A DNA stretch of 64,000 nt from Escherichia coli 042 (GTDB lineage: Bacteria > Pseudomonadota > Gammaproteobacteria > Enterobacterales > Enterobacteriaceae): NCBI RefSeq assembly GCF_000027125.1, contig NC_017626.1, one strand, 5' to 3'. The translations under genes and the position numbers were made by a program. Under the pieces are notes generated by a model, which was not told the DNA's origin, ran no database searches, and saw nothing but the letters and a program-made list of their open reading frames with translations. Shown here piece after piece: positions 45,854 through 50,156 of this stretch (position 1 is the stretch's first letter; the number at the start of each line of letters is the position of its first letter).

Positions 45854-46207
45854 ATGTCATTTCTCTTACCCATCCAACTGTTCAAAATTCTTGCTGATGA
45901 GACCCGTCTGGGCATCGTTTTACTGCTAAGCGAGCTGGGAGAGTTATGTGTCTGCGATCTCTGTACTGCCCTCGATCAGTCGCAGCCCAAGATATCCCGC
46001 CACCTGGCGCTTCTTCGTGAAAGCGGGCTATTGCTGGATCGCAAGCAGGGTAAGTGGGTTCATTACCGCTTATCGCCGCATATTCCAGCATGGGCAGCGA
46101 AAATTATTGAGCAAACAAGATTAAGCCAACTGGACGACGTGCAGGCTATCGCCCGTAAGCTGGCCGCAGCCAACTGCTCTGCAGACGGTAAAGCAAGCTG
46201 CAGTTAA
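45854..46207 (+). CDS. arsR: Arsenic-responsive repressor ArsR
   Basis: 117 aa; metalloid-binding ELCVCDLC motif and HTH. Confidence 0.95.
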   Translation: MSFLLPIQLFKILADETRLGIVLLLSELGELCVCDLCTALDQSQPKISRHLALLRESGLLLDRKQGKWVHYRLSPHIPAWAAKIIEQTRLSQLDDVQAIARKLAAANCSADGKASCS

Positions 46208-46254
46208 AAAATTTGCCTGGATATATATGATTTTCCGAATGTGAGGTGTCGAAG

Positions 46255-46617
46255 ATGAAGACGTTAACGGTGTTTGATCCGGCGATGTGTTGCAGTACCG
46301 GCGTCTGTGGTTCTGATGTTGATCAGGTGCTGGTCGATTTTTCCGCAGATGTGCAATGGCTGAAAAGCCGCGGTGTTCAGGTCGAACGTTACAATCTCGC
46401 GCAGCAACCGATGAGTTTCGTGCAAAACGAAAAAGCGAAAGCGTTTCTTGAGGCTTCCGGGGCGGAAGGATTGCCCTTGATCTTACTGGGAGGCGAAACC
46501 GTGATGGCGGGCCGTTATCCGAAACGCGCCGAGCTAGCCCGCTGGTTTGGGATCCCGCTGGAGAAGGTGGGGCTGGCACCAACACACTGCTGTGGCGGAA
46601 AAACCGACTGTTGTTGA
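46255..46617 (+). CDS. arsD: Arsenical metallochaperone / trans-acting repressor ArsD
   Basis: ORF 46246-46617; ATG 46255 with GAGGTG RBS gives 120 aa; N-terminal CCSTGVCG and C-terminal cysteine-rich tail. Confidence 0.9.
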   Translation: MKTLTVFDPAMCCSTGVCGSDVDQVLVDFSADVQWLKSRGVQVERYNLAQQPMSFVQNEKAKAFLEASGAEGLPLILLGGETVMAGRYPKRAELARWFGIPLEKVGLAPTHCCGGKTDCC

Positions 46618-46634
46618 GCCGGTCAGGGGGACAT

Positions 46635-48386
46635 ATGAAATTCTTACAGAATATCCCGCCTTATCTGTTTTTTACCGGTAAGGGAGGTGTAGGTAAAACG
46701 TCAATTTCCTGCGCAACTGCTATCCATCTGGCGGAACAGGGAAAACGGGTTCTGCTTGTCAGCACCGACCCCGCGTCGAATGTCGGTCAGGTATTTAATC
46801 AAACTATTGGTAACGCTATTACTCCTGTGACAGCGGTTCCCGATTTGTCAGCGCTGGAAATTGACCCTCAGCAAGCCGCTGAACAGTATCGGGCCAGAAT
46901 CGTTGACCCTATCAAAGGACTTCTCCCTGAGGAGGTTGTAAATAGTATACGCGAACAACTTTCGGGAGCATGTACGACAGAGATCGCGGCGTTCGATGAG
47001 TTCACCGGTTTACTGACCGATGCCTCTCTGCTGGCCCGCTTTGATCACATCATTTTTGATACCGCGCCAACGGGCCATACCATACGACTTCTGCAGCTCC
47101 CCGGTGCCTGGAGCAGTTTTATTGAAAGTAATCCCGATGGTGCCTCCTGTCTTGGCCCGATGGCTGGGCTGGAAAAACAGCGTGAGCAGTACGCTGATGC
47201 GGTAGAAGCATTATCCGATCCTGAGCGTACCCGCCTGGTGCTGGTTGCACGCCTGCAAAAATCAACATTGCAGGAAGTCGCTCGCACTCATGAAGAACTG
47301 GCAGCGATTGGTCTTAAAAATCAGTATCTGGTGATCAACGGCGTATTGCCTGAGTCCGGGCAGCAAAATGACCCACTAGCAATGGCAATAGTTCAGCGTG
47401 AGCAGGAAGCCCTGGTAAATTTACCCGCCGGTTTATCGACCATTCCAGCAGATACCCTCTTTCTTCAACCGGTGAACATGGTTGGCGTGCCTGCATTAAA
47501 AGGTCTTTTTAATACCCGTTTCGAGCCTGCCCCACTCTCTGGCCAGGTGCGCCAGCAATTCTCTGAAAACATGTCATTCTCTGAGTTAGTGAATGATATT
47601 GCCCGCAGTGAACACGGTCTGATCATGCTGATGGGAAAAGGCGGCGTGGGGAAAACCACAATGGCCGCAGCTATCGCCGTCAGGCTGGCAGATATGGGAT
47701 TCGATGTGCATCTTACAACCTCCGATCCTGCTGCCCACATTAACACTACCCTAAACGGCACACTTAACAACCTACAGGTCAGCAGGATCAATCCGCAGGA
47801 AGAGACCGAGCGCTATCGCCAGCATGTCCTTGAGACAAAGGGAAAAGATCTCGATGAAGCGGGGAAACGACTGCTGGAAGAGGATTTACGCTCTCCCTGC
47901 ACCGAAGAGATTGCTGTATTTCAGGCGTTCTCGCGCGTGATCCGTGAGGCGGGTAAACGTTTTGTGGTGATGGATACCGCACCAACCGGTCACACGCTGT
48001 TACTGCTGGATGCCACCGGGGCTTATCACCGTGAAATTGCGAAAAAAATGGGCGAAAAAGGTCACTTTACTACGCCAATGATGCAACTTCAGGATCCGCA
48101 ACGCACCAAAGTGCTGCTGGTTACGCTGCCTGAAACCACACCCGTACTGGAAGCGGCTAATTTGCAGGCCGATCTTAAACGCGCAGGGATTCATCCCTGG
48201 GGCTGGATAATCAATAACTGCCTTTCTATTGCGGAAACTCGTTCGTCGCTACTGTGTCAGCGAGCAACGCAGGAACGACCACAAATTGAGGCGGTGATGG
48301 CCCGACATGCTAAGCGTGTAGCGCTGGTCCCTCTATTCGCACAAGAACCTACGGGTATCGAAAAACTCAGAAAGCTGGCAAGTTAA
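46635..48386 (+). CDS. arsA: Arsenite-stimulated ATPase ArsA
   Basis: ORF 46611-48386; ATG 46635 gives 583 aa; duplicated P-loops GKGGVGKTS / GKGGVGKTT and DTAPTGHT signature in both halves. Confidence 0.95.
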   Translation: MKFLQNIPPYLFFTGKGGVGKTSISCATAIHLAEQGKRVLLVSTDPASNVGQVFNQTIGNAITPVTAVPDLSALEIDPQQAAEQYRARIVDPIKGLLPEEVVNSIREQLSGACTTEIAAFDEFTGLLTDASLLARFDHIIFDTAPTGHTIRLLQLPGAWSSFIESNPDGASCLGPMAGLEKQREQYADAVEALSDPERTRLVLVARLQKSTLQEVARTHEELAAIGLKNQYLVINGVLPESGQQNDPLAMAIVQREQEALVNLPAGLSTIPADTLFLQPVNMVGVPALKGLFNTRFEPAPLSGQVRQQFSENMSFSELVNDIARSEHGLIMLMGKGGVGKTTMAAAIAVRLADMGFDVHLTTSDPAAHINTTLNGTLNNLQVSRINPQEETERYRQHVLETKGKDLDEAGKRLLEEDLRSPCTEEIAVFQAFSRVIREAGKRFVVMDTAPTGHTLLLLDATGAYHREIAKKMGEKGHFTTPMMQLQDPQRTKVLLVTLPETTPVLEAANLQADLKRAGIHPWGWIINNCLSIAETRSSLLCQRATQERPQIEAVMARHAKRVALVPLFAQEPTGIEKLRKLAS

Positions 48387-48428
48387 TTTTTTATACAGGG
48401 CGACCATGTCGCCCTGTCAGGAGGGTGT

Positions 48429-49718
48429 ATGTTACTGGCAGGCGCTATTTTTGTCCTGACCATCGTATTGGTTATCTGGCAGCCGAAAGGTTTAGGCATC
48501 GGCTGGAGTGCAACGCTCGGCGCGGTACTGGCGTTGCTTACGGGCGTGGTTCATCCGGGTGATATTCCGGTGGTGTGGAATATCGTCTGGAACGCGACGG
48601 CGGCGTTTATTGCCGTCATTATCATCAGCCTGCTGCTGGATGAGTCCGGCTTTTTTGAATGGGCGGCGCTGCACGTCTCACGCTGGGGCAATGGACGCGG
48701 TCGCTTGCTGTTCACCTGGATTGTCCTGCTCGGTGCCGCCGTTGCAGCTCTGTTTGCCAATGATGGCGCGGCGCTGATTTTAACGCCAATTGTCATCGCC
48801 ATGCTGCTGGCTTTAGGATTCAGTAAAGGCACTACGCTTGCGTTTGTGATGGCGGCCGGGTTCATTGCCGATACCGCCAGCCTGCCGCTTATTGTCTCCA
48901 ACCTGGTGAATATCGTTTCCGCAGATTTCTTTGGCCTCGGCTTTCGCGAATACGCATCGGTGATGGTGCCGGTGGATATCGCCGCAATTGTTGCCACGCT
49001 GGTGATGTTGCATCTTTATTTCCGCAAAGATATTCCGCAGAACTACGACATGGCGCTGCTGAAATCGCCCGCAGAAGCGATTAAAGATCCTGCTACGTTC
49101 AAAACTGGCTGGTTTGTTTTACTGTTTCTGCTGGTGGGATTTTTCGTCCTGGAACCGCTCGGCATTCCGGTAAGCGCCATTGCGGCAGTGGGCGCGCTGA
49201 TATTATTTGCCGTCGCTAAACGCGGTCATGCAATTAATACGGGTAAAGTCCTGCGCGGTGCGCCCTGGCAGATTGTCATCTTCTCGCTCGGCATGTATCT
49301 GGTGGTTTATGGCCTGCGCAATGCCGGACTAACGGAATATCTTTCTGGCGTACTCAACGTGCTGGCGGAAAACGGCCTGTGGGCCGCGACGCTCGGCACC
49401 GGATTCCTCACCGCCTTCCTCTCTTCTATTATGAACAATATGCCGACGGTACTGGTTGGCGCGTTGTCCATTGATGGCAGCACGGCATCTGGCGTTATCA
49501 AAGAAGCGATGGTTTATGCCAACGTGATTGGCTGCGATTTGGGACCGAAAATTACCCCAATTGGTAGCCTGGCTACGCTACTCTGGCTGCACGTACTTTC
49601 GCAGAAGAATATGACTATCAGCTGGGGATATTACTTCCGTACAGGAATTATCATGACCCTGCCGGTGCTTTTTGTGACGCTGGCTGCGCTGGCGCTACGC
49701 CTCTCTTTCACTTTGTAA
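48429..49718 (+). CDS. arsB: Arsenite/antimonite efflux permease ArsB
   Basis: 429 aa polytopic membrane protein. Confidence 0.95.
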
Positions 49719-49730
49719 TGAGATATTGAT

Positions 49731-50156
49731 ATGAGCAACATTACCATTTATCACAACCCGGCCTGCGGTACGTCGCGTAATACGCTGGAGATGATCCGCA
49801 ACAGCGGTACAGAACCGACCATTATCTATTATCTGGAAACACCGCCAACGCGCGATGAGCTGGTCAAACTCATTGCCGATATGGGGATTTCCGTACGCGC
49901 GCTGTTGCGTAAAAACGTCGAGCCGTATGAGGAACTGGGCCTTGCAGAAGATAAATTTACTGACGATCGGCTAATCGACTTTATGCTTCAGCACCCGATT
50001 CTGATTAATCGCCCGATTGTGGTGACGCCGCTGGGAACTCGCCTGTGCCGCCCTTCAGAAGTGGTGCTGGAAATTCTGCCAGATGCGCAACAACGCGCGT
50101 TCACCAAGGAAGATGGCGAGAAAGTGGTTGATGAAGCGGGTAAACGCCTGAAATAA
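49731..50156 (+). CDS. arsC: Arsenate reductase ArsC (glutaredoxin-coupled)
   Basis: 141 aa; catalytic Cys context YHNPACGTSRNTL. Confidence 0.95.
   Translation: MSNITIYHNPACGTSRNTLEMIRNSGTEPTIIYYLETPPTRDELVKLIADMGISVRALLRKNVEPYEELGLAEDKFTDDRLIDFMLQHPILINRPIVVTPLGTRLCRPSEVVLEILPDAQQRAFTKEDGEKVVDEAGKRLK

Follow-up and report, generated by a model that had tools for sequence, protein, structure and literature searches.

Our analysis of a 64,000-nucleotide (nt) stretch of the Escherichia coli 042 chromosome (contig NC_017626.1; hereafter, the window) reveals a five-gene arsenic resistance operon, arsRDABC, at the native ars locus of the species. It is highly probable that this operon functions in arsenic and antimony detoxification and that the tract bearing its arsD and arsA genes was imported by homologous replacement from an arsRDABC donor. 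An earlier reading of the window, made from its sequence alone, had placed a five-gene chromosomal operon at 45854-50156. These coordinates proved exact to the base, and the region consists of five intact open reading frames (ORFs), all on the plus strand:

45854-46207, plus strand: arsR, 117 amino acids (aa); 219 bits with NF007528 (cut-off, 97)
46255-46617, plus strand: arsD, 120 aa from the ATG; mechanical ORF start at GTG 46246
46635-48386, plus strand: arsA, 583 aa from the ATG; mechanical ORF start at TTG 46611
48429-49718, plus strand: arsB, 429 aa; 730 bits with NF011980 (cut-off, 457)
49731-50156, plus strand: arsC, 141 aa; 305 bits with NF007456 (cut-off, 242)

All five Ars proteins scored above curated NCBIfam or Pfam cut-offs and were matched over their full length. 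The earlier report that arsA and arsD are free of frameshifts held when their products were aligned, without gaps, to ArsA and ArsD of plasmid R773. Spacers are short (47, 17, 42, and 12 nt in arsRDABC order). Given these spacers, the native promoter, and a scan that found no convincing terminator within the operon, we infer that the five genes would be read as one polycistronic transcript from the arsR promoter. Upstream lie prlC-rlmJ-gor-dinQ and downstream slp-dctR-chuS-chuA, a context that marks the sequence as E. coli chromosome. Furthermore, K-12 has arsRBC at this very site (observed in strain JM109), as the sequence-only reading had said of K-12. The operon combines two sets of features. 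Its flanking genes (gor-dinQ-ars-slp), promoter, and arsB and arsC alleles are those of the native Escherichia ars locus, and its R-D-A-B-C order on one strand, short spacers, and ArsR arsenite, or As(III), site (ELCVCDLC) are those of an R773-type operon.

The arrangement is real but ordinary: it is a variable module that has been annotated and published before. With at least 95% identity, arsDA occurs in 187 of the 5,426 complete E. coli genomes (3.4%), and all 187 have it at this locus, annotated in RefSeq, which agrees with its earlier description as a variable module. Many strains, including one named 'O15:H18 strain ST69', match the arsDA tract (46208-48428) at 100% identity. A 'complete arsRDABC operon' was described on the chromosome of the sequence type (ST) 69 complex and ST1836, phylogroup D, by Sütterlin et al. 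(2018; PMC5923176). One carrier, wlxctx60, has yhiD-hdeB after dctR as in K-12 and is missing chuS-chuA there, which places it outside phylogroup D at this locus. As a discovery, the operon is minor, being textbook biochemistry that is annotated in RefSeq and published in ST69. Our additions are incremental and concern its recombinational origin, a chimeric ArsR, an orphan donor lineage, a retained hairpin, and a linked regulator-permease pair.

The probable imported tract and the chimeric ArsR

The boundaries of the tract emerged when the window was aligned with a closely related E. coli arsRBC strain, K-12, and a plasmid arsRDABC operon. Identity to the arsRBC strains is 93-100% up to ~46113, a point within arsR close to codon 87. 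Over the rest of the gene it is 64%, compared with 76-82% to the plasmid operon, and it recovers at the arsB ATG. Between these points, the sequence is 76-89% identical to other arsRDABC operons:

46113-48428, plus strand: putative imported tract of ~2.3 kb, not present in arsRBC strains, with the arsR 3' end, the arsR-arsD spacer, arsD, arsA, and the arsA-arsB spacer with its hairpin

On this alignment, ArsR reads as a chimera in which residues ~1-86 are of native Escherichia type and residues ~87-117 are of arsRDABC type. K-12, E. fergusonii, and E. marmotae have a different tail. Four carrier haplotypes (the window, GN25, MLI121, and wlxctx60) share the junction, and their ArsR and ArsD proteins are identical. 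The shared junction points to a single arrangement that would have spread or diversified later. In addition, four synonymous differences at 46009-46016 in arsR (GCGCTTCTTCGT versus GCATTGCTGCGT) are specific to the ST69-type haplotype of the window and GN25 and partly match plasmid-type arsR. Because this patch is missing from two other arsRDABC haplotypes, which have the native sequence, the evidence suggests that the left recombination boundary has been reworked since import and differs between carriers.

The sequence-only reading had proposed that the arsDA flanks be compared in search of insertion scars. There were none, and we found homologous-recombination boundaries instead, one in arsR and the other at the start codon of arsB. 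The only direct or inverted repeats near arsDA were short ones at chance level, and no insertion sequence (IS) or transposase is annotated within 6-9 kb in the carriers examined. The boundaries fall in homologous arsR and at the start of arsB, and the tract does not bear the marks of a mobile-element insertion (flanking direct or inverted repeats, a transposase or integrase, or a tRNA or attachment [att] site).

In the history that we favor, homologous recombination would have exchanged the arsR 3' end and the arsR-arsB spacer of an arsRBC operon native to the locus for the ~2.3-kb tract. Crossovers would lie in conserved arsR and at the conserved 5' end of arsB, such that the promoter, the 5' part of arsR, arsB, and arsC stayed native. 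If so, the locus offers a worked example in which an accessory gene pair reaches a core locus through homologous recombination at the conserved ends of an operon, with a chimeric regulator left behind. Metagenome ArsR proteins P0123-P0125 also combine a native N terminus with a plasmid-type tail; we did not use them as independent recombinants, given that they may be assembly chimeras. In L089 (4.2x coverage), the one contig examined, such an ArsR adjoins gor at 5275-5628, and the contig stops right after arsR.

Transcription of the operon is presumably controlled from a region upstream of arsR, where promoter hexamers were picked by eye:

45775-45829, plus strand: presumed ars promoter and ArsR operator region, with -35 TTGACT at 45801-45806, a 17-nt spacer, and -10 GACACT at 45824-45829

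We take these hexamers, and the operator-like ACACATTCGTTAAACCATATATG at 45775-45797, to be the ars promoter and operator in line with the K-12 and R773 literature; the promoter was not flagged by a simple promoter scan, and the case for it is its identity with the K-12 sequence. The operator-like sequence differs from other E. coli at two variable bases only, and 45798-45853, comprising the promoter and 5' untranslated region, matches K-12 and further arsRBC strains of E. coli exactly.

The right end of the tract carries a hairpin that is absent from arsRBC strains:

48395-48417, plus strand: hairpin ACAGGGCGAC-CAT-GTCGCCCTGT in the arsA-arsB spacer, directly 5' of the arsB Shine-Dalgarno sequence

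A 10-bp stem is present in both the minimum free energy and the centroid folds. The hairpin is kept across 22 enterobacterial arsRDABC operons, in which 95.9% of cells are paired (versus 33-48% with a slid register) and compensatory changes occur at 4 pairs. It would have arrived as part of the imported tract, and it corresponds to the first of two R773 hairpins that Owolabi and Rosen (1990), as cited in PMC4562236, tied to rapid decay of arsB mRNA. By analogy, this conserved element probably restricts ArsB expression through mRNA processing. An Rfam scan of 44900-52300 returned nothing except two AgrB-family small RNAs (sRNAs) upstream.

Direction of change, donor, and predicted function

Comparison with other species suggests the direction of change. 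At the same locus, E. marmotae and E. fergusonii have gor-dinQ-arsR-arsB-arsC, and the K-12-type ArsR tail (…AWRCEQEKVQ.IVRNLARQNCS.DSK.ICS) and arsR-arsB spacer are common to both. At the DNA level, the window arsB is 98.7% identical to that of an E. coli arsRBC strain; identity is 96.4% with K-12, 94.9% with E. fergusonii, 89.4% with E. marmotae, and 82% with Citrobacter. For arsC, identity with other E. coli is 96-98%. As judged from these identities, the native arsB nests inside the diversity of E. coli. Because the arsRBC junction, which like the K-12-type tail is common to E. fergusonii and E. marmotae, is older than the separation of these species from E. coli, and because the flanks in the window are ordinary E. 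coli alleles, the simplest history would be one in which arsRBC is ancestral at this locus and arsDA is a later arrival.

The donor may have been an arsRDABC operon from a lineage that is so far unsampled outside E. coli. Across 5.8 billion proteins, ArsA identity drops from at least 97%, seen in E. coli only, straight to 87%. Similarly, in representative genomes of 100,044 species (one each), no ArsA from outside E. coli exceeded 88%, leaving aside a mis-binned 'Collinsella' contig. The likeness to R773 that the sequence-only reading had drawn stands in one respect, namely, that a complete R773-type gene set lies on the chromosome, but the link to plasmids is distant: among the 72,556 plasmid records of PLSDB, the best plasmid arsDA reaches ~80% DNA identity. 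When compared with 24 other enterobacterial operons, window arsA and native arsB have outlier distance ratios of 1.38 and 1.44, respectively, and the donor lineage would be as deep as Escherichia's own ars lineage.

Two database entries deserve mention in this connection. The 'Collinsella' contig (L005, JAIJJM010000447.1, from a 'Collinsella sp.' metagenome-assembled genome) is 2.7 kb long and 100% identical to the window arsDA, and it is almost certainly mis-binned E. coli. The sole 100% match in PLSDB, NZ_CP141089.1, is the 4.9-Mb chromosome of E. coli strain KE47 filed as a plasmid.

The products of the operon retain the residues on which an arsenite pump of the R773 type depends. ArsR is by family (NF007528) a repressor responsive to As(III) and Sb(III), and Cys32/34/37 are present in ELCVCDLC. 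ArsD scored 132 bits with NF033727 (cut-off, 90) and 158 bits with Pfam ArsD (PF06953), and it aligns with R773 ArsD (PDB 3MWH) without gaps over residues 1-109, of which 96 are identical. Its cysteines comprise Cys12/13/18 in MCCSTGVCG, which are needed for As(III) transfer as cited in PMC4562236, and Cys112/113/119/120, two vicinal pairs in the C-terminal HCCGGKTDCC. The gene has GAGG 8 nt 5' of its ATG and lies directly upstream of arsA across the 17-nt spacer, in keeping with the arsD-arsA adjacency rule stated in PMC6205960. ArsA scored 939 bits with TIGR04291 (cut-off, 650), its residues 7-570 spanning model positions 2-564 of 565, and its ungapped alignment with R773 ArsA (PDB 1F48) over residues 1-582 has 492 identities. 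It consists of two homologous halves, each with a P-loop (GKGGVGKT; residues 15 and 334) and a DTAPTGHT signal-transduction motif (residues 142 and 447). The metalloid-binding cysteines Cys113/172/422 (R773 numbering) are in place, as are His148/453. The lengths and motifs that had been listed for the two proteins (CCSTGVCG and a Cys-rich C terminus in ArsD; duplicated P-loops and DTAPTGHT in ArsA) are thus all present. Finally, ArsC, of the glutaredoxin-dependent arsenate reductase family, has Cys12, Arg60, Arg94, and Arg107.

The biochemistry of the R773 pump, summarized in PMC6205960 and PMC4562236, provides a model for how these proteins may work together. ArsR would keep its own promoter repressed for as long as neither As(III) nor Sb(III) occupies Cys32/34/37, and ArsC would reduce arsenate to arsenite. 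ArsD, the likely As(III) metallochaperone for ArsA (and in R773 a weak second repressor), would catch As(III) at Cys12/13/18 and hand it to the Cys113/172/422 site of ArsA. As the As(III)/Sb(III)-stimulated ATPase and catalytic subunit of the ArsAB pump, ArsA would hydrolyze ATP in its two nucleotide-binding halves, powering extrusion through ArsB, the predicted arsenite/antimonite carrier and membrane subunit. ArsB may also act alone as a proton-coupled (secondary) carrier. Sequence comparison establishes gene content, key residues, tract boundaries, and conservation of the hairpin, whereas expression of the operon, assembly of the imported ArsA with the native ArsB, and any fitness benefit are inferred.

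Value of arsDA to the host and alternative histories

Several lines of evidence weigh against our interpretation, some concerning function and others origin. The sequence-only reading had predicted higher arsenite/antimonite resistance than in K-12, a prediction that does follow from R773 biochemistry but has no published phenotype behind it in the case of this operon. In clinical isolates, arsenite minimum inhibitory concentration (MIC) did not differ significantly between those with arsRDABC and those with arsRBC (Sütterlin et al., 2018; PMC5923176). This is the sole isolate-level MIC comparison that we found, and as it gives no support, the presence of arsDA should not be equated with higher arsenite resistance. 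The benefit of arsDA in this background is unproven. Furthermore, pairs of arsA haplotypes differ by 7-10 nonsynonymous codon changes versus 10-12 synonymous base differences, compared with 1-2 and 12-17, respectively, for arsB. The changes in ArsA of two other arsRDABC haplotypes (L086 and L085) include G36R in MLI121 and Q230H and Q484L in wlxctx60, at positions that are invariant in 107 other enterobacterial ArsAs, and selection on arsA is possibly weaker in E. coli. The window ArsA itself departs at 7 of 343 invariant positions, mostly conservatively; such departures are expected given that its lineage is an outgroup to the comparison set. With respect to origin, arsA differs by 1.0-1.3% among carriers, about the same as the flanking native genes, and by this measure the tract would be old and not a very recent import. 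A long-lived source related to Escherichia would look the same as a foreign donor, and on this point the sequences are ambiguous.

It could be argued that arsDA is a neutral or slowly decaying passenger and that ArsB and ArsC by themselves confer resistance, as they do in K-12. The MIC comparison is consistent with this scenario, as is the nonsynonymous share, which is higher in arsA than in arsB and includes changes at otherwise invariant positions in other haplotypes. We nevertheless consider a passenger unlikely. All five ars genes are intact in every haplotype examined (n = 4), arsD and arsA among them, and for the latter two the annotation of every listed carrier shows intact genes. No catalytic or metalloid-binding residue has been lost, and the ArsD protein is identical across haplotypes that differ by ~1% in arsA. 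Moreover, MIC in rich medium is a coarse test. The benefit of ArsD is reportedly one of competitive fitness at low As(III), a finding attributed to Lin et al. in 2006, and MIC would not detect such an effect.

A different history would make the operon a vertical relic: arsRDABC would be ancestral in Escherichia, arsRBC would have arisen by deletion of arsDA, and ST69 would have kept the old form. In support of a relic, the first ~38 nt of the arsR-arsB spacer of arsRBC align with the arsR-arsD spacer at ~71% identity, and the end of the same spacer resembles the arsA-arsB spacer minus its hairpin. Because of these likenesses, the two operon types would differ, at some deep level, by a clean insertion or deletion of arsDA. 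It is also true that window arsA is no more outlying than native arsB with respect to other enterobacterial operons, that there is no known donor, and that arsA diversity among carriers is ~1%. However, E. coli, E. fergusonii, and E. marmotae all have both the arsRBC junction and the divergent ArsR tail of K-12 type, and because that junction is shared, any deletion of arsDA must predate the split of the three species. The 5' part of arsR, arsB, and arsC in the window are E. coli-like (95-99%), far nearer to E. coli arsRBC alleles than to those of other species. A relic would thus require a polymorphism that persisted over species splits together with homogenization of the flanks right up to the junction, and carriers make up only 3.4% of E. 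coli genomes. These requirements render a vertical relic improbable, and we retain import by homologous replacement as the better account of the tract.

Recent capture from an R773-, R46-, or IncH-type resistance plasmid or a transposon integrated in the chromosome would explain why gene order, spacer lengths, and the hairpin match those of plasmid operons, and plasmid-type arsRDABC does occur in E. coli, both on plasmids (43 places) and at chromosomal sites other than this one, but this scenario is effectively refuted by a best plasmid match of only ~80%, by the native rather than plasmid type of arsB, arsC, the 5' part of arsR, and the promoter, by the lack of IS, transposase, or flanking repeats, and by the ~1% separation of carriers in arsA.

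The divergence of the tract has implications for surveillance. Because chromosomal arsDA is ~20% divergent in DNA from R773/R46-type genes, surveys that rely on plasmid-based PCR or gene catalogs may miss or misclassify it. One survey found no arsA-positive E. coli by PCR (PMC9731454). In RefSeq, the chimeric ArsR (WP_000008964.1, in L001, L085, and L086) is named only 'transcriptional regulator', whereas the entry for the K-12-type protein reads 'As(III)-sensing metalloregulatory transcriptional repressor ArsR'. Given this generic name, surveys based on gene names could miss arsR in arsRDABC strains.

Neighboring genes and known relatives

Beyond arsC lie two further genes with possible ties to arsenic, and a palindrome separates them from the operon:

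50203-50239, no strand assigned: REP-like palindrome TGTCGGATGCGACGCTAACGCGTCTTATCCGACCTAC between the convergent arsC and ArsR-like genes, with a strong predicted stem
50290-50586, minus strand: second regulator of the ArsR/SmtB family, 98 aa; 62 bits with NF033788; outside the five-gene operon and convergent with arsC
50694-51695, plus strand: permease of the ArsP_1 family, 333 aa with the RefSeq start (337 aa if read from ATG 50682); 176 bits with PF03773 (cut-off, 32.3)

We take the palindrome to be a repetitive extragenic palindromic (REP) element on the strength of the REP consensus. The permease gene is divergent from that of the regulator. The best solved relative of the regulator is ArsR of A. 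ferrooxidans (PDB 6J05), with whose As-binding Cys95-Cys96 its own Cys90-Cys91 align; these are its only C-terminal cysteines, and they are kept in the copies of E. fergusonii and Citrobacter. Within the permease, TPFCSCS is invariant, and a loop with many Cys pairs is variable. Every source names it only 'permease', and its NCBIfam matches, to Cu/Zn and SaoE efflux families, are all below threshold. The pair occurs in 2,221 of the 5,426 E. coli genomes (41%), including all arsDA carriers; it stands beside the ars operon in E. fergusonii and is absent from K-12 and E. marmotae. On these grounds, an arsenical and possibly organoarsenical role for the pair is a reasonable hypothesis.

A more far-reaching proposal is that the whole locus represents a seven-gene arsenic island. 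The pair would then be a module for sensing and efflux of organoarsenicals (methylarsenite type), and, separately, the orphan arsDA tract would represent an old ars lineage not sampled elsewhere, which selection invisible to MIC tests has maintained in a minority of E. coli. In such an island, the imported ArsA might energize the ArsP_1-family permease in addition to ArsB. We regard the proposal as doubtful.

Other features of the surroundings are shared in part with K-12. Between gor and arsR, as in K-12, are the type I toxin gene dinQ (minus strand, ~45030-45113) and two tandem AgrB-family antisense sRNAs at 45388-45472 and 45620-45703 (RF02891; 94 and 108 bits). Downstream, at 52276-53499, an intact ORF of 407 aa lies in a stretch of low GC (32-35%, versus ~52% around it); neither Pfam nor NCBIfam gave a match for it. 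Its counterpart in K-12 is the yhiS-like pseudogene, which IS5 interrupts. Frameshifts disrupt the ORF in GN25, MLI121, and O17_K12a; wlxctx60 has an intact version that is only 86% identical, and E. marmotae has none.

Among known systems, the chromosomal arsRDABC of the ST69 complex and ST1836 (PMC5923176) is the same object, a five-gene operon at the ars locus of chuA-positive E. coli. That description did not extend to the recombination boundaries or the chimeric ArsR, to the absence of any known donor, or to the carriers outside phylogroup D. The arsRBC operon of K-12 occupies the same locus (gor-dinQ/agrAB ... slp) and shares its promoter, with arsB 96.4%, arsC 96.2%, and the 5' part of arsR 93% identical. 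It differs in having no arsD, arsA, or hairpin, in an ArsR C-terminal tail that is 64% identical in DNA, in the absence of the ArsR-like regulator and permease pair, and in the IS5 within its yhiS-like gene.

A match to the locus as a whole is found in Citrobacter. Two contigs (L092/L093) and C. gillenii (L024) have the same seven genes in the same order and orientation as window 45854-51695. The five Ars proteins are 82-93% identical to those of the window; the regulator is 88% and the permease 68% identical. We rejected this cluster as the donor of arsDA, its ArsA being 87% identical. In L092/L093, the cluster lies not at the gor-slp locus but among phage genes (lambda P, DinI, RusA, holin). 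Specifically, it spans 230-6092 within a lambdoid prophage, with lambda P upstream and DinI, RusA, DUF968, and holin downstream, so that arsenic resistance there looks like phage cargo.

The operon of R773 provides the functional comparison. Unlike it, the window operon is chromosomal, sits at a fixed locus, and is of arsRDABC type only in the arsR 3' end, arsD, and arsA, and plasmid-type operons have ~80% DNA identity to it. The two nevertheless agree in gene order, strand, and short spacers; their ArsA and ArsD proteins are 84.5% and 88% identical, respectively, in gap-free alignments, with the functional residues kept; and the hairpin that precedes arsB has been conserved with compensatory changes.

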